Assembly (NCBI RefSeq): GCF_036365525.1
Contig: NC_090399.1
Location: forward strand, 13,143,558-13,207,557
Direction of reading: 5' to 3'
Length of the DNA: 64,000 bases
Origin: Heterodontus francisci
Lineage: Eukaryota
Each line of letters opens with the position of its first letter. Positions within the stretch are counted from its first letter, which is position 1. Position numbers and translations under genes: made by a program. Of the stretch, positions 6,325 through 64,000 are shown in pieces. The notes under the pieces are model-generated. The model saw only the letters and a program-made list of their open reading frames with translations, was not told the DNA's origin and ran no database searches.

Positions 6325-8498
6325 AGCGTTTCTGGTCAATGATTTTTCATGTCTGTTAATAGCTTATTAACAAAACTTGAGGTGCACTCTCCTCCCTGTG
6401 ATGTTCTGATTTTATTTCCAATGCCAAATGATTTTGCACATGTAAATGAATGTGGAGAGGTGCTTTTAAAGGGGCTCCTTAATTTCTGGTGTAGAATCTC
6501 CAGAGCAGGCTCTGCACCTGCTAATATCCGCTTTTACAAGAATGTGTGAAAATCATCGTAATTTTTGGGCAATCATCCTTCCCTTCCCCAGAGCCCATTG
6601 AGCTTCACTGCAGCTTATTGTTTATGGCGCAAGTTGCAGTGCTGTTGTGACCCTCTGTAGTGGTGAACATCTCAGTGTTGCACCCGTAAAATCCCAGCCA
6701 GAGTTACCAGGCTGCATTTGCGGGCCGCGCGCGCGGGGCCCATGACGCGGTAGCTCATTACCATGTCCGGGGCGGCCGCCCCATCCCGCCGAGGGCGGGG
6801 AAGGGGCGGGTGGGCCGTCGCCGGCAATGGCGCCCGGCACCAACGCGCAGGTGCAATTTTTAAATGGCTTACAGCTGTAAGTGAGCATTTAAATTTTTAA
6901 AGGGCCACTTACTGTAAAGTTTAAAAAATGGATGGAAAAGTCTTCCCATGCCCTCTCCCAACGAACCCCCCCCCCCCCCCCGCCCCCAAAGCTCAAACAC
7001 TATGTCCTTTACCCTTTCCCATCACTCCCCCCTCCTCCCCCATCAACCAAGCTGGGGAGTTTGACCCCATTCTTCCCCTCCCACACTGAGAAAGGTTCCT
7101 CCTCCCCACTTCCCACAGGAGTCGCGCCTCGTTTCCCCAAAGGCCGCCCAAATGAAGATACAAACCTGCTGGCAGAATTGCTGCGGCCTGCATGGTAAGT
7201 AGCCGTTTACATATTTTAAAGTGGGTCCCGTCGCTGAGCGGCGGGGCGGCCCCCACGAGGCCTCGCCGCCGAGATCGATACGGGGCCTCCTCCGTTGCAA
7301 TCTTCATTGATTCCCAACCCCTCCCCCCCACCATTCCCGGTGTCGGAGAGGTTTTAAAATCCAGCCCGTTAACTCTGCTTCTCTCTCCACAGATGCTGTC
7401 TGACCTGTTTGAGTTTCTGTTTTTATTTTAGGGGTAGGCTCTTGTTAGTTCAGTAAGGTTACAGTAGCAAGAGTTTGTCTTTGACCACCTCGGTAATCTG
7501 CGGGACCAGAAATTGTACGTGTAAAGTCACACTCCGGCTTTTCAAACTCCGAAGAGAATTGGATATGTGTTTGAAAAGGAAAATAAAACAGCAGGGTAAA
7601 GAGCTGGGGGTGGGGTGGGGTATGATTGAATTGCAATCGCTCTGTCAAAGAGCCAGCACAAGCACAATGGGCCGAATTGCCACTTTCTATCCTCTGTGAT
7701 GTATGGTGGCATGACCAACTTTATTGCTAATAGTTAAGAGTTTAAAAATACAAGTTTTCTTTGTCATGATGGGAAAGAAATATAATGCACTGGGTATCTG
7801 CTGAAATTTGTGTTCAGTTTCTGGATTAAGTGTTTACAGGCCTGGATTCACCAGCTCGGTGAATCAGAGCAAGTTTGTTCACACATAAAGTCACCCCCAT
7901 CTTCAAAGCCAAGAGTGACTTATTAAAATTCACCAGCAATAAATCCGTGCAAATTCACACACTTCAGATTAAAGAGTTTGATGGCATTTCTAGGTATGTT
8001 ATAATGCAGGACTACATCTTTTGTTAGAAATAGGATGATTTTGCTGTTTTTAGGGAGGCGATAATTATTGCTGATAATGTGAAGTTTATTAGATGAGTTT
8101 GCATTTTCAGCAGGTTGCCTGAGGAAGTAGTTGATTTTTGTTTTAGGCAAGATGTCTCAACCATGTGGCCTTTGGTTTGAAAGTTTCTACAATCTTATTA
8201 AAGAGTAAAAAATAAAATCGAATCTATTTTTAAAAATTAGTAATTTTTCTAATTAATGAGGTTCCACTATAAAGTGAAAATATACCACTGTCGCAAACGC
8301 CAACCTTTTCGGAATGCAGTTAAAAATTACGAGAAATACTTAAGATTAGGGCAGTGACCGGGAAAAAATACTTAAATAAAAACGGAAAAAGCTGGAAATA
8401 CTGAGCAGGTCAGGCAGCACCTGTGGAGAGGAACAGTGACCTATCTCCTCCCCTTCGCACTTTCTTTTAAAACGTGACTCTTGGATAAATTATTTTCT

Positions 8499-8514
8499 GA
8501 CTCTGAAAAAAGCC
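8499..8514 (-). other. Degenerate histone 3' stem-loop (orphan)
   Basis: Minus strand GGCTTT-TTTC-AGAGTC pairs fully with two G-U wobbles; purine-rich CAAGAG about 16 nt downstream. Confidence 0.4.
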
Positions 8515-8579
8515 GCTGACTTTTTAAAAATTTCACAATTTAATAAATGATTGGGGGGTGATTTGCTTCCCACTGACTC

Positions 8580-11545: not shown

Positions 11546-11959
11546 ACATATTTTTGGAAAAAAATTATTCCAGATTTCCACCATCTGCAATATTGTGCTA
11601 CGAAAAAAAAAATTACTGGTTCTTAATAATTTATCAACAAAAAAGAAACAGATTTCCTTTTTTCAGTCTTTAGATAAAAAGTCTAATCAGTAAAGAGTCA
11701 CATTGAATCTAGATTTTTAAAAATAAAATGTGACTCTTTTCAGAGTTTCAGATCTCCTCCTGAGCCGGAGCTTTACTGCCCTCCTCCGGGCCTTTGGCTA
11801 ATTTCCTGGGCTTTACCCGCTGGCGTTTGCCTTTCCCGGGGCTCCTGGCTGCCTTCCTCCCCTTAGGGCTTCTCGGTTTGTGGCTCCCCTTCGCCCCCTT
11901 CCTGCTGCGGGCGGTGCTGGATTTCCTCATCTTCCTGGGTGCGACTCTCTTCTTGGGCT

Positions 11960-15544: not shown

Positions 15545-16350
15545 CATGCTGGCCCCCTGGTAATTGACTTCTCCGCTTGGGGAAACAGGTCCTTCCTGTC
15601 TACTCTATCTAGGCCTCTCAAAATTTTGTGCACCTCAATTCTTGAGTGTTGTTGGATCTGGAGTCACAGAACCATAGTAAAGTTACGGCACATAAAGAGG
15701 CCATTCATCCCATCGTGTCTGCACCGGCTGAAAAAAAAACGAGCTGCCCATTCTAATCCCACTTTCCAGCACCTGGTCTGTAGCCTTGCAGGTTACAGAA
15801 CTTCAGGTGCATGTCCAGGCACCTTTTAAGTAAGTTGAGGGTTTCTGCCTCCACCACTGATCTGGGCAGTGAATTCCAGACACCCACCACCCTCTGGGTG
15901 AAAAACTTTTTCCTCATGTCCCCTGTAATCCTTCTACCAATCACCTTAAATTTGTGCCCCCTGGTAATCGACTTCTCCGCTAGGGGAAACAGGTCCTTCC
16001 TGTATACTCTATCTAGCCGCCTTATAATTTTGTACACCTCAATAAAGTCACCCCTGAGCCTCCTCTGTTCTAAGGAAAACAGCCCTCGCTGATCCAATCT
16101 TTCCTCATAGCTGCAACTTTCGAGCCCTGGTAACATTCTTGTAAATCTCCTTTGTACTGTCTCCAGAGCAATTATGTCCTTTCTGTAATGTAACCAGAAC
16201 TGTAGGTAACACTCCAGATGTGGCCTAACCAGTGTTTTATACAGTTGCAGCATTACATCCCTGCTTTTGAATTCTATACCTCGGCCAATAAAGGAAAGCA
16301 TTCCATATGCCTTCTTCACCACTTAATCTATCTGTCCTGCCACCTTCAGG
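15545..16350 (-). mobile_element. CR1 LINE 3' fragments
   Basis: ORF 15753..16322 with LYKTLVRPHLE and RLRGDFIEVYKI. Confidence 0.9.
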
Positions 16351-17886
16351 AACCTCGTCCCTCCTCGGCTTCTTCTCCACCCGGGCGGCCTCGTCCTTCT
16401 GCCCCTTGCTGAGCTTGAAGGAGCCCGAGGCGCCGCTTGCCCGTGCTCTGCACCAGCGTGCCTTTATTCACCAGGCTCCGGAGCGCCTGCTTGAGCCGCC
16501 ACTTGTTCCCGGCCACGTCGAAGCCGCTGCGGCACCTCTCCTCCTGGCCAGCTGCGGGGGCTTGGAGCCCTTCCTCTTCCTGGCCGGCAGGATGTCGCTC
16601 ATGGCTGGGCTTCGGGAGCTTTTCCCTCTCTCTCTCTCTCTGTCGGGAAATGAAGAGTTTCCAGCAGCCGCCGCTATTTAACCGGGTGAGCCGGACGCTG
16701 CAGTGTCAAAGACAACTCCAGGGTCTCCCCCAGCCCCCAAGACCAGGACCTGGGGGGACATCTCAAACCCTTAAAATCTTCCCAAAAAACAAACACATTT
16801 ACACCGGGAGATCCCTTTTTAACAAACCGTGGACCAAGCTGAAGCCTTTCCAGACATTTTAATTCAGGACAGTTGTTCAAGTCTGGTTCTTATAACAAAT
16901 TCACACAAAGGTCTCCTCCAGCTCAGCTTAAAACACCTGAAAACAAAACACACCAGAAAATTAAGCCGCCTTCTTACCAAAGTATATGTCACCTTAGAGC
17001 GATTCTGTATTTCCAGAGGGGCTCTCTCTCTCTCCCCCCTTTAAAATCCTGGTCACTACGTTTGATGAAAAGTTTCCTCAAAAATTTGAGCGTTTCTCCA
17101 TCTCTTCCACTGTGGGATATCCTGGGACGTGTTGTGACTTCAAATGCCATTTGTAAATGCAAGTTGGGCAGATTTCAAATAAATAAATAAATAAATAACC
17201 TCTTACCTCCCCATCATGTTCATCTCTTCCTCGTACAATATCTTCAGGATCTAAACACGGCGTCGCTTGATAATATTCTTAGATTCATATTTCCCCCCAC
17301 TTTTCCCCCACCTACAATATTGGCGGTCCGGCAACAAAGATCTTCCCTGAATACCTGGATTTCAATATCAGAGTGAATCCTTCAACTGAAATCCTTGTTC
17401 TCAAGACATGTTGGAGTGAGAGTTCTTCATTGGGCGTCACTTGTCCCATTCCCCTGTGCATTTCCCAATGTCTTCATGCAATCTTGAGTCGAAGTAAAAA
17501 GCGTGATATGAAACATATTTCATGACGAGAGCACACCGGGTGCAGTTTGGTTAGACCTTGAAAGATTAATTTGGCTGAAATCAGCGACTGCAAACGGAGA
17601 TAAGAGGCTCTCATTGATGATTTAATTTGAAACTGGGACCCACCTTACATTAGACTACAGGGAGAGCACTCTCAGCAGAGTATTAAACCCAGGAAACGAA
17701 AAACTGTCTTGCAAGAAGCGATACAGTGGATCATCTACATCTATGGGCAAAAGTCCCCAGCTAGTTATCGGCTGCAGGTAGATGGTGGATTCATGCTTAA
17801 CTATTGAGTTAACTCAGGAATCTGACATTGTCGTATTTTGCGAAGTTAGACACGATTAATAGCCCCACGTTCAGACCTTGTTAAGT

Positions 17887-17951: not shown

Positions 17952-18359
17952 CTACTTGGAGCTGGTGTATTTGGTGACCGCCTTTGTGCCCTCGGAGACG
18001 GCGTGCTTGGCCAGTTCCCCCGGCAGCAGGAGGCGGACGGCGCTCTGGATCTCCCTGGAGGAGATGGTCTGGCGCCTGGTGTAATGGACCAGGCGGGAAG
18101 CCTCGCAGGATATGCGCTCGAAGATGTCGTTGACGAAGGAGTTGATGACACTCATGGCCTTGGAGGAGATGCCCGTGTCGGGGTGGACCTGCTTCAGCAC
18201 CTTGTAGATGTAGATGCTGTAGCTCTCCTTCCGGCTCCTCCGGTGCTTCTTGTCGCCCTTCCTGGACATTTTCATCGCCGTTTTCTTGGACCCTTTCTTG
18301 GAAACGGCGCCTTTGGCGCCGGCGGCCGTGACACTGGTGGAAACAGCGGCGGTCGGCAT
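17952..18359 (-). CDS. H2B: Histone H2B variant, 135 aa, extended N-terminus ([17 protein letters not shown]...)
   Basis: Histone fold [15 protein letters not shown]...[23 protein letters not shown]; first ATG at 18359; TATA, octamer and stem-loop present. Confidence 0.95.
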
Positions 18360-19415: not shown

Positions 19416-20066
19416 TCAGGGTTTCCCGCCTTGGACGGTGCCCTCGGAACTGCTTTCCCCTCCCGGCTGTTGCTCGGCCTCCTGCCCACCGGGCGGACCG
19501 GCGTCTGGCGCCGGCTCCCTGGCCGCTTTCCGGGGCCGCCCGACCCCCCTCCGGGGACCGGACCTGCCGCCGGTTCCCTTCGCGGCCTTTCGCCGGCCGC
19601 CGGCGGTGCCGTTCTTCTTCCGCCTGACCGGCTTGTTCTTCTCGGCGGGGGTCCTCTTCTTCTCCCTCTTAGCGGTGCCGCCGCTGGCGGCCGCCCTCTG
19701 CTGCCCGCCCCGGGGGGCGGTGGCAGTGAGGGCCGGGCGGCTCTGAATGTCCTGGCGCTGCCGGTTGATCTTGAAGGAGCCCGAGGCCCCGGTGCCCGCC
19801 GTTTGCAGCAGCGAGCCTTCGTTCACCAGGTTCCGGACCGCCTGGTTCACCCGCGAGTTGATCCGCGGCACGTCGTAGCCGGCGGCCGACAGCGCCTTCT
19901 TGACGCCGGCCAGCGACAGGCCGCGACGCTCCCGGGAAGACGACACCGCCTCCAGGATGTGCCCGGCCATGGTGGGCGCGCCCACCTGCCGCAGCTTGGG
20001 CGGGACCCTCCGCTTCCTCGGCTTCCTGCCTCGGGTGGGGCCTTCGGCCAGATCACCCGAAGCCAT
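19416..20066 (-). CDS. Arg-rich histone H1-like protein, 216 aa, stem-loop type
   Basis: Winged helix ILEAVSSSRERRGLSLAGVKKALSAAGYDV...LVNEGSLLQTAGTGASGSFKIN; TATATA at 20278..20283; CCAATTGG at 20362..20369; stem-loop. Confidence 0.9.
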   Translation of the reverse strand: MASGDLAEGPTRGRKPRKRRVPPKLRQVGAPTMAGHILEAVSSSRERRGLSLAGVKKALSAAGYDVPRINSRVNQAVRNLVNEGSLLQTAGTGASGSFKINRQRQDIQSRPALTATAPRGGQQRAAASGGTAKREKKRTPAEKNKPVRRKKNGTAGGRRKAAKGTGGRSGPRRGVGRPRKAAREPAPDAGPPGGQEAEQQPGGESSSEGTVQGGKP

Positions 20067-29500: not shown

Positions 29501-29506
29501 TTTATT
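29501..29506 (-). terminator. Putative polyadenylation signal of the second H1-like gene
   Basis: AATAAA on the minus strand about 100 nt after the stop; no histone stem-loop in between. Confidence 0.6.
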
Positions 29507-29608
29507 AAAATCAAAAAACTTTCTTTTAACACGTGTCTGGTACATTATTTTTTTAAGATTTCTCGTGTAAGCATAATGTGTGACTTGTTCCAGCCTCCTG
29601 AGTACGAA

Positions 29609-30304
29609 TCAATGGCTCAGGGACGAGCCGTTCCTCCGCTCGGCTGAGTGTCTGGGTGATGGGTCGGGGGTTTTGGTGGAGTCAGTCGTGGTTGTGGTGC
29701 GTGTCGGCCGCTTGGTCACCTTCCTAAACCTGGCGTCCTTTCGGAAGGCAGCGGGGCTTCTCCCCCGCCTGCCCGTCGTCCTCCTGAACCTTTTGGCCTG
29801 CTTGGGGCGCACCAGGGCTTTCCTGGCCGGCCTCCTGACCAACAGCCTCCTGCGCCGGTTCCTCCTGGCCCCCGAGAAAGAGGCCGCCGCCACCTTCCCC
29901 TCGGTGGCCGCCTTCTCCGGCTTGTTGTTGCCGCCCGGCCTGACCGAGCCCGAAGCGCCGCTGCCGGCCGTCTGCAGCAGCGAGCCCCGGTGCGCCAGGT
30001 TCTTGACCGTGCGGCCGAGCCGCGACGTGTTGCGCTCCGGGCTGTAGCCGCTGGCCGACAGCAGCTTCTTCATGGTGGTCACCGACAGGCCGCGCCGCTC
30101 CTTGGTGGCCGCCACCGCCTTCATGATCTGCTCGGCCACCGTGCAGCCGAACTTCTTGTGGCGGTAGGGCCGCCGCTTCTTCTTCACCGCCACCGCGATG
30201 TCCAGCACCTCGGCCTCATCGGGCGGGGGCGGGGGCGGGGCCGGCGGCGGCGACGAGGCCACCGGAGCGGGTCGGTCCATCCCCGCCGGCTCGTGGTCCA
30301 CCAT
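29609..30304 (-). CDS. Arg-rich H1-like / protamine-like protein, 231 aa, no stem-loop
   Basis: TVAEQIMKAVAATKERRGLSVTTMKKLLSASGY...LAHRGSLLQTAGSGASGSV winged helix; RRNRRRR tail; first ATG at 30304; TTTAAA box at ~30399..30405; CpG-rich. Confidence 0.85.
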   Translation of the reverse strand: MVDHEPAGMDRPAPVASSPPPAPPPPPPDEAEVLDIAVAVKKKRRPYRHKKFGCTVAEQIMKAVAATKERRGLSVTTMKKLLSASGYSPERNTSRLGRTVKNLAHRGSLLQTAGSGASGSVRPGGNNKPEKAATEGKVAAASFSGARRNRRRRLLVRRPARKALVRPKQAKRFRRTTGRRGRSPAAFRKDARFRKVTKRPTRTTTTTDSTKTPDPSPRHSAERRNGSSLSH

Positions 30305-30989
30305 GCGGTTAGGCAGTCGCTCAGTCAATCGCTCCGCACCTCTCCTCCCGCCGGCAGCCAGGGCTGCAATGTGGAGGGCGGCCGCCGGCTCGGCGCTACT
30401 TAAAGCCGCGGTGCGGACGCGGGAGACGCAACCCGCCCGCCGGCCCGCCCGCCTTGTGCTTTCTCCCCGCCGCCAAGAGGGCGCCGCGCGCGCAAGATCG
30501 GGCGCCGGCGCCGCCGCCGCCCGCCCCCACCCCCGCCGCGCTGCCACCCGCCGCCCGGGCAGCGCCTGGCGGCTGCCAGCAGGCGGCGGGTTCCGCCCGG
30601 ACGGCGAAACCCGCCCGGGAAGCCGGCCCGCCCCCGCCTTTTTTGCGCTTCCCCGGTCAGAATGCGGCGCCGACCCGCTGCTTTCGCCCCTGTTCCGCCG
30701 GGAGGTTGCAGGAGCCGGGTCGCCCTTGCTATTGCAGATGGACCCGTTGTTCCAGCGCGTTGTGGGACGTGGGAGGTTCCTGTTAAGTCTGGTCTCAGTA
30801 GCACAGGTAGGTTCCTTACATCAGGAGGGATTTTAACGGCGGGCTTTTGCCGCAAGGGAGTCGATTTTGCGGTTTACGGTTTAGCATCAGCCCCGGGTAA
30901 TTCATCTCATTTGGGTTGCTTTGCACATCAGCAACGCAGAGTCTGGACTATTCAACTACCCTTTCCTTTACCCAGCCTCAAGAAGTTAG

Positions 30990-32889: not shown

Positions 32890-33294
<405 letters not shown>

Positions 33295-35260: not shown

Positions 35261-35406
35261 ATTAAGGTTAGGATCAATGGTTAGAGCTTAGTGGTTAAGG
35301 TTAGGAATTGAGACTAGGGTGTTAGGTTTAGGAGTTAGTGGTTGGGGTTTTAAGCGTTAGGATTATTGGTTAAGGGTTAGCGGTCAGGATTAAGTTTAGA
35401 TTTAGA
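35261..35406 (+). repeat. Degenerate (TTAGGG)-like simple repeat
   Basis: Recurrent GGTTAG/TTAGG/TTAAGG units. Confidence 0.6.
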
Positions 35407-35674
35407 AATGGCTCTTAACAATGCTGTTGTCACTAGACGCCTCCACCAAGTAAACCAGAATGTGGACACACTTACACTAACTATTACGTTATCAGGCAAC
35501 TGAGAATGGAGCTTAAACTATATTAGTCCATATAACTTAATTTAATGCATCCAAACTGTTTTTGTACCATGTTTATTTGGTTGAGAATGAAAGTGCTAAG
35601 TGTCTGACCTAAAAGTTGATGTTCAGTTTCTCTTTGTTGCTACGAAATTCTCATTGTCATGGAAAAATTATAGT

Positions 35675-47085: not shown

Positions 47086-47466
47086 ATGCCTGAAGCGGCG
47101 TCCAAGGGAATGGCTCCCAAAAAAGGGCCAAAGAAAGCAGCCACCAAGAAACGGGTCAAAGGTGAGAAGAAGCGGAGGAAGGCTCGGAAGCAAAGCTACA
47201 GCATCTACATCTACAAGGTGCTGAAGCAGGTCCACCCCGACACGGGCATCTCCTCTTCGGCCATGAGTGTCATCAACTCCTTCGTCAACGACATCTTCGA
47301 GCGCATCGCCTGCGAGGCTTCCCGCCTGATCCGCTACAGCAAACGGCAGACCATCTCTTCGCGTGAGATCCAGACCACCGTCCGCCTCCTGCTGCCGGGG
47401 GAACTGGCCAAGCACGCCGTCTCTGAGGGCACAAAGGCGGTCACCAAATACACCAGCTGCAAATAA
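47086..47466 (+). CDS. H2B: Histone H2B variant, 126 aa, two Cys
   Basis: H2B fold with ERIACEA and C-terminal YTSCK; octamer promoter and stem-loop. Confidence 0.96.
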
Positions 47467-63844: not shown

Positions 63845-64000
63845 TTAAGCGGAATTGGTGTATTTGGTGACCGCTTTTGTGCCTTCAGAGACGGCGTGTT
63901 TGGCCAGTTCCCCCGGCAGCATGAGGCGGACGGCGCTCTGGATCTCCCGGGCCGAAATGGTATGCCGCTTGTTGTAGTGAATGAGGTGCGAAGCCTCGGA
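63845..64000 (-). CDS. H2B: Histone H2B variant, C-terminal 51 aa (5' part outside the window; absent from the ORF track)
   Basis: Manual translation [51 protein letters not shown]; stem-loop follows. Confidence 0.92.

Follow-up and report, generated by a model that had tools for sequence, protein, structure and literature searches.

An arginine-rich linker histone gene in a horn shark histone cluster, with a decayed stem-loop inside its coding sequence

A linker histone H1 variant encoded in a histone gene cluster of the horn shark Heterodontus francisci represents, by sequence comparison, an old, single-copy chondrichthyan H1 subtype that includes the chimaera, and a record of how its reading frame captured the histone stem-loop can be read in the gene. 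Because the coding sequence has grown over the RNA signal that couples histones to cell division, the cells in which the gene functions are probably non-dividing ones, with developing sperm as the likeliest candidate. The family is apparently undescribed, as a literature search, with the subscription papers on dogfish spermatids and PL-I outside its range, found nothing on it, and shark germline linker histones as a whole appear unstudied in the literature searched. The variant is thus an old, single-copy candidate germline linker histone of sharks, and it displays in its sequence one exit of a replication-dependent histone gene from S-phase control, in which the ORF grows over the stem-loop. 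The window referred to throughout is the whole stretch of 64,000 nucleotides analyzed, and the features of the gene are collected in Table 1.

The H1 variant, its cluster and its lineage

The ORF encodes 35 Arg, 20 Lys and 1 Cys. These counts and the length of 231 aa had been given in an earlier note made from the letters of the DNA, together with a poly-Pro and acidic N-terminus, an RRNRRRR cluster, a Thr run and a wing ending in GSVRP, and all were re-obtained from the translated ORF. As a set of observations that note holds for the ORF, its composition and a downstream AATAAA, while its statement that there is no stem-loop needs correction. The Pfam Linker_histone profile (PF00538) matched residues 56-122 (E 1e-12, 48 bits vs. 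a cutoff of 22), and the protein has the layout of the linker histone H1 family, an H15 winged helix between disordered tails. Protamines are described as proteins of 50-110 aa with up to 80% Arg and no globular domain (passages of PMC13148410), a description that the shark protein, with 231 aa and 15% Arg, does not fit.

Table 1. Features of the H1 variant gene in window coordinates
Feature	Positions	Strand	Basis
CpG-island promoter region	30305..30900	-	GC 0.78, CpG o/e 1.1 over 400 nt
TATA-like TTTAAG, 100 nt 5' of ATG	30399..30404	-	Sequence
Single-exon ORF, H1 variant, 231 aa	29609..30304	-	Pfam; orthologues in 12 species
Poly-proline stretch, aa 19-28, in acidic N-terminal region	30221..30250	-	Sequence; most orthologues Pro-rich
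Family-specific conserved motif ahead of winged helix, aa 30-52, basic KKKRR core	30149..30217	-	Mean identity 0.81, 12 orthologues
Winged-helix domain, aa 53-123, replication-dependent H1 lineage	29936..30148	-	Pfam, bit scores, tree, alignment
Arg-dense tail segment, aa 147-186	29747..29866	-	16 Arg, 19 Arg+Lys per 40 residues
Decayed histone stem-loop inside last codons	29609..29634	-	16-nt core 29629..29614
Purine-rich stretch 14-23 nt past relic stem, place of histone downstream element (weak)	29591..29600	-	Purine fraction
Candidate poly(A) signal AATAAA, U-rich directly upstream, UGUA at -38	29501..29506	-	Sequence

The variant sits, as had been proposed, among seven other histone genes of the window: three H2B (the third truncated at the edge of the sequence), an H2A, an H3, an H4 and a second H1. 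Each of the seven has a canonical stem-loop, located 22-49 nt past the stop in the six measured. The second H1 (19416-20066, minus strand; 29 Arg, 17 Lys), also Arg-rich, carries its intact stem-loop 42 nt past the stop, has a near-identical copy on the same contig and has orthologues in Scyliorhinus and Heptranchias. The H2B genes (17952-18359, minus; 47086-47466, plus; 63849-64000, minus) differ from one another, and cluster mates of the first are auto-annotated as "gonadal-like". Variant histones may be common in this cluster. The H4 gene (32890-33201, minus) is unusual in having five substitutions relative to canonical H4 and a GC3 of only 0.47, with an intact stem-loop. Deletions mark a broken H1 of the Carcharodon/Hemiscyllium type (16331-16642 and 11733-11957, minus), which is split by about 4.4 kb of retrotransposon-like DNA. 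At positions 798-2520, a 36-nt unit is repeated in tandem about 48 times, with a frame of 584 codons open through the array, and the window contains no tRNA genes.

In a single-sequence search, 12 further chondrichthyan species, among them sharks, rays and skates as well as Callorhinchus, each yielded one close relative, all with an intact ORF, and a truncated model of S. torazame is a probable further member. Among the 12 orthologues, identity to the horn shark protein is 0.81 over residues 30-52, 0.84 over residues 53-86 and 0.49 over residues 87-123; the tails (0.15-0.25) evolve fast. In five of these species (Callorhinchus, Narcine, Hypanus, C. plagiosum and Heptranchias), the family member and another H1 variant are on contigs of equal length and so apparently together, which is not the case in the skates Amblyraja and Rhinoraja. 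A profile search of 1.84 billion representatives returned no non-chondrichthyan family member among the 19 further best matches with a name, in a listing with 100-odd others. This distribution over 13 species, the chimaera among them, describes a stable, old subfamily rather than an intermediate caught in the act. It also bears on the idea of a drifting duplicate with no special role, in which GC-biased change in a CpG island would have brought both the gain of Arg and the loss of an AT-rich stop. The GC3 of 0.91, the fact that AAG-to-AGG is an AT-to-GC change, the decaying wing and the broken H1 nearby would all agree with such drift; the ORF intact from chimaera to rays and the identity of 0.81-0.84 over residues 30-86 speak against it, and we regard it as very unlikely.

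The winged helix scored 65 bits to chicken GH1 and 55-60 bits to human H1.1-H1.4, vs. 19-27 bits to H1.0/H5, an order that was unchanged with the family profile. Matches to H1.10 reached 12-15 bits (E 0.3-3.6), whereas a canonical H1 control reached H1x at E 1e-10. On these scores the winged helix is not of the H1.0/H5 or H1.10 (H1x) type, and orthology to either, which the earlier note had named as a refuting outcome, was not found. No chain named H1.8 or B4 surfaced among the matches of the query or of the canonical control.

A tree was built from 57 named rows over 74 columns, after removal of two rows, the truncated model of S. torazame and a degenerate H1 of Heterodontus. This tree, which is without H1.0, H1.10, H1.8, HILS1, PL-I, scylliorhinine or any Lys-rich shark H1, placed the 13 family rows in one clade (support 98/92). 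This clade is nested among 37 chondrichthyan rows (98/96) comprising several subfamilies, and an Arg-enriched sturgeon/paddlefish pair is sister to the whole with weaker support (86/93). A single clade with mammalian H1t was rejected (AU p 0.021, for a single H1t row on a long branch). The clustered-type winged helix and the location in a histone cluster are those of a replication-dependent H1, and the proposed derivation from a clustered H1 is upheld by both bit scores and tree. The gene belongs to H1 and lies outside PL-I, H1.0, H1.10, H1t and HILS1. The 37 chondrichthyan rows form a radiation of Arg-enriched subfamilies, all without the wing Lys, to which the sturgeon/paddlefish H1 may be sister; the searches recovered no Lys-rich H1 from a shark. 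A separate curiosity is the teleost gene model P0113 of Lycodopsis pacificus (KAM6926517.1), which has three tandem H1 winged-helix domains.

The 3' end and the promoter

No stem-loop lies in the 3' UTR of the variant, where the best match within the first 150 nt past the stop has six mismatches, a background level; to this extent the earlier claim of a missing stem-loop stands. A degenerate element is found instead inside the last six codons, with five Watson-Crick pairs, a G·U top pair and the loop UCCC. Its alignment with the seven true elements of the window requires no gaps, it is the closest stem-loop match within 3.3 kb, and the stop codon ends exactly 5 nt past its stem. A replication-dependent H1 would carry an intact stem-loop 25-60 nt past the stop; here the relic is in the ORF and U3 of the loop is changed. 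None of the seven true elements has a stop at the corresponding codon. The purine fraction at the position of the histone downstream element is 0.62, vs. 0.44-0.69 in the true elements.

Several searches gauged how readily such an element arises by chance. A 26-nt covariance model built from the seven true elements only, run over both strands (128 kb), scored the relic above every other site outside its training set (14.4 bits, rough E 0.046). A weight matrix put it in joint third place among about 127,000 positions, and the five-pair pattern occurs eight times in the window, namely in the seven true elements and the relic. Shuffled sequences placed this pattern near the stop in 5/20000 and 9/20000 cases. 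The Rfam model Histone3, with which three of the seven true stem-loops reached the gathering score, did not report the relic at E<=10, and a 61-nt model with AT-rich flanks missed it. Two weak stem-loop-like sites elsewhere (8494-8519 and 35405-35430, both minus) have no histone gene upstream and are likely due to chance.

Probable traces of the same event are seen in other sharks. In both Chiloscyllium orthologues and in Pristiophorus, the last six residues are one base change from a translated stem-loop, and the horn shark protein is two changes away. By best-case back-translation from protein ends, one or two changes suffice to derive 4 of 14 family C-termini from a translated stem-loop, and none of 58 other named H1s comes within three changes at its end; a fit of Mobula (three changes) was left uncounted for its frame-shifted tail. 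The tails of rays, chimaera, Heptranchias and catshark contain no stem-loop peptide above background. Ray orthologues stopping at the first stem-loop codon, or read in another frame, would need three to five changes, like background.

Cleavage of histone mRNA occurs 5 nt past the stem, and regulation needs 25-60 nt between stop and element, according to passages of bioRxiv 10.64898/2026.10.14.759114. Changing U to C at the third loop position greatly impairs SLBP binding, as described in part of PMC4604434, so the relic of Heterodontus is probably dead and the use of poly(A) would be the natural outcome. The likely history is that the old stop was lost first and the switch to poly(A) followed. 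A different reading keeps the element at work: an inverted cell-cycle switch, in which the in-frame stem-loop blocks the H1 in dividing cells and permits it in spermatids. In dividing cells SLBP and U7 would direct the cut 5 nt past the stem, and 3'hExo, described as trimming to 2-3 nt past the stem (PMC4604434, in part), would remove the stop codon and so render the mRNA useless; in SLBP-free spermatids the transcript would continue to the poly(A) site and yield the Arg-rich H1. Pristiophorus and Chiloscyllium would still have a working switch, one that decayed in Heterodontus, and the gene would represent an independent route from clustered H1 toward a protamine-like protein in animals whose whole H1 radiation lost the dyad-binding lysine. 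We regard such a switch as improbable.

The AATAAA begins 102 nt past the stop, in line with the distance of about 100 nt first noted, and is only suggestive as a signal. The hexamer occurs by chance in 461 of 2968 AT-rich stretches of 110 nt (15.5%), the sequence downstream stays below the U/GU-richness looked for (U 0.40, G+U 0.60), and a UGUA upstream is also present at 21 of the 89 AATAAA sites in the window. A TTTT immediately 5' of the hexamer is found at only one of these 89 sites, that of the H1 variant. This U-rich run resembles a CPE and would suit a maternal H1 of the oocyte and early embryo, similar to B4/H1.8, with its poly(A) mRNA under cytoplasmic polyadenylation control; weak nucleosome binding would likewise suit open embryonic chromatin. 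The CPE-like motif was recognized post hoc, and real poly(A) sites often have a U-rich element upstream. With no sequence link to H1.8, although no H1.8 chain surfaced for the control either, a maternal role seems very unlikely.

The promoter differs from those of its neighbors. Its 400 nt contain nine GC boxes and no CCAAT, AC box or CRE, while a CCAAT box is present upstream of the other six complete histone genes of the window. A CpG-island promoter with GC boxes fits transcription that would be independent of the cell cycle. Promoters of this kind, without a CRE, are unlike mammalian post-meiotic promoters, which counts against a strictly spermatid gene. The CpG island spans 600 nt upstream, and a possible plus-strand splice donor near 30805 (within 30660-30830, plus) makes a divergent transcript possible.

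The same promoter, a CpG island with nine GC boxes and neither CCAAT nor AC box, could serve a somatic replacement H1 of non-dividing cells such as erythrocytes, neurons or quiescent tissue. In this case a cluster-derived gene would have lost its stem-loop, become polyadenylated and converged on H5/H1.0, in parallel to H2A.J. Precedents are described in passages of several sources: H5 is Arg-enriched, intronless and poly(A)+ and serves erythrocytes (PMC4584325), loss of the stem-loop is known for H2AJ, which neighbors an H4 gene and is expressed in senescent cells (PMC9526256), and in differentiated tissues polyadenylated mRNA is made from some clustered histone genes (PMC5100578). Decay of helix 3 and the wing across the family, with loss of the dyad-binding Lys, would however be ill-suited to a somatic H1 that compacts chromatin, as would the fast evolution of the tail (identity 0.15-0.25) and the low basic content. 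A somatic role is therefore rather unlikely in our view.

Arginine enrichment and decay of the winged helix

Arg accounts for 22% of the tail and Lys for 9%, and S/TPxK motifs are absent, in place of the Lys-rich, S/TPxK-bearing tail of a replication-dependent H1 (3-5 motifs in clustered vertebrate H1). AGR codons specify 16 of the 24 tail Arg, whereas the core histone genes of the window, of which five are complete and were counted, use them for 9 of 64 (p 4e-6), an excess that fits single AAR-to-AGR changes from Lys and bears out the suggested Lys-to-Arg shift. This shift is a property of the whole group. Every named chondrichthyan H1 scored has an Arg share of 0.34-0.72 among its basic residues, all 37 sampled chondrichthyan H1 domains come from Arg-enriched proteins, and canonical bony-fish and amniote H1s have shares of 0.03-0.16. 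The variant (0.64) is matched by its stem-loop-bearing neighbor (0.63), so Arg-richness does not mark the poly(A) gene. Given the enrichment across all chondrichthyan H1s sampled, Arg-richness is, on these comparisons, older than the 3'-end change and separate from it.

Within the winged helix, Ala113 replaces the wing Lys, Gly97 a helix-3 Lys and Val121 the wing Phe, and Cys54 stands at the domain start, a position where 11 of the 12 elasmobranch members of the family have a Cys. In 37/37 chondrichthyan rows the wing motif QTKG is without its Lys, and Lys or Arg occupies the position in 20/20 others. The wing Phe is gone in all 12 elasmobranch family members and is retained in the chimaera member and in 24/24 other chondrichthyan rows. 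Identity in the second vs. the first half of the domain is 0.56 vs. 0.83 in the family and 0.78 vs. 0.81 in its sister family. The wing Lys and helix-3 Lys positions of the chondrichthyan alignment are those that we take, by transfer of the H5 numbering, to correspond to K85 and K69. In H5, K85 sits at the dyad and K69 is a DNA contact, as described in part of PMC1963316. Two AlphaFold2 runs gave three helices at low confidence (pLDDT 55 and 60, pTM 0.17 and 0.23), and Foldseek found no matches with this low-confidence model as query; models this weak say nothing for or against a folded wing.

These features invite comparison with sperm proteins of the PL-I type. A true PL-I protein or precursor, the strong form of the earlier proposal, would displace the histones of spermatids, with aa 147-186 cut out as a protamine-like peptide. 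This segment does form a protamine-like stretch: 19 of its 40 residues are basic and 16 are Arg, in agreement with the Arg/Lys-rich tail stretch of 30-50 residues found in PL-I, and it is among the densest of 42 proteins scored, although other shark H1s attain a similar basic density with fewer Arg. The AGR excess, the Cys at the domain start and the winged helix itself would also agree. Wing decay is known from PL precursors, as the wing hairpin is described as dispensable in the fish PL-I of Mullus (PMC4584325, in part) and as lacking in a spider PL precursor (PMC11607694, in part). Descent argues otherwise, since PL proteins are described as deriving from the replication-independent H5/H1.0 lineage (PMC13148410, in part) and the shark winged helix is much nearer to clustered H1 (55-65 bits) than to H1.0/H5 (19-27 bits). 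Total basic content, raised in PL-I according to passages of PMC4584325, is 23.8% Arg+Lys in the variant and 21-25% in the family, vs. 28.8-32.1% in three canonical H1s and 22.7% in H1t. RS/SR repeats number only two, and no conserved cleavage site is visible in the family alignment. Dogfish sperm, moreover, already has short protamines without a winged helix. We consider a PL-I identity improbable on these grounds; what persists of the earlier interpretation is the clustered-H1 origin, the Lys-to-Arg shift, the protamine-like stretch and the conserved ORF, and what falls away is the tie to poly(A), the PL lineage and the basic content.

Predicted role and comparison with known systems

The reading we prefer, with about even confidence, is a predicted role as a replication-uncoupled linker histone of the male germline, similar to H1t/HILS1, rather than as a protamine precursor. 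The subtype would have originated inside the replication-dependent histone cluster before the chimaera/shark split, after which tail Lys changed to Arg, mostly by AAR-to-AGR point changes, and the S/TPxK motifs were lost, changes that are directly apparent in the tail. In sharks, the ORF would have lost its old stop and run through the stem-loop to end at the U7 cleavage position, a read-through that is shown for the horn shark gene and inferred from protein ends for the orthologues. The loop presumably decayed afterward in the horn shark gene to a form with little affinity for SLBP, and the transcript would end instead at the AATAAA further on, so that synthesis would no longer depend on S phase. 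As the wing has lost its dyad-contacting Lys and drifts together with helix 3, the protein may bind nucleosomes weakly and hold DNA mainly by its Arg tail. It would then most likely act as H1t and HILS1 do, in remodeling spermatocyte and spermatid chromatin ahead of the shark's own protamines.

In the ESM Atlas, the best match of the variant is a spermatid-specific H1 cluster (0.94). The stem-loop-bearing neighbor has the same best match (0.92), followed by two protamine-like clusters, so the Atlas does not single out the variant. These matches hint that the whole shark H1 clade resembles germline H1s. The neighboring H2B and H4 genes are divergent as well.

Clustered vertebrate H1s (H1.1-H1.5, chicken GH1) are the closest relatives by winged helix (55-65 bits), and the shark gene shares with them an intronless, in-cluster organization and, in decayed form and within its ORF, the remains of the stem-loop. 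It differs from them in its Arg share (0.64 vs. 0.03-0.16), in having no S/TPxK motif (vs. 3-5) and in the lost wing Lys and Phe. Mammalian H1t (H1.6) is likewise a diverged cluster member with few basic residues (22.7% for the single H1t scored and 23.8% for the shark protein), but it forms no joint clade with the shark gene, which has far more Arg. H1t also keeps a normal stem-loop. Judged against their descriptions, HILS1 (H1.9) and H1T2 (H1.7) are similar in their divergent winged helix and lack of S/TPXK (for HILS1, passages of PMC6069787) and are the nearest Atlas clusters by features. Both are described as mammal-specific orphan genes outside the cluster (PMC3380720 and PMC6069787, in part), and membership in this group fails since the shark gene sits inside one. 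H5/H1.0 and H2A.J resemble it in being intronless and, if its AATAAA is used, of poly(A) type, H5 also in its Arg enrichment and H2AJ in the loss of a stem-loop beside an H4 gene (PMC9526256, in part). The H5/H1.0 winged helix is distant (19-27 bits), and read-through of an ORF over the stem-loop is not described in the passages on these genes. Sharks themselves use protamines. The PL-I proteins of Mullus surmuletus, bivalves and tunicates share with it a winged helix, a disordered tail with an Arg/Lys-rich stretch, a decaying wing and a Cys at the domain start; by their descriptions they are set apart as H5/H1.0-derived and more basic. If the shark gene is indeed spermatid-specific, drift from H1 toward protamine-like proteins would have set out from clustered H1 as well, and not only from H5/H1.0.
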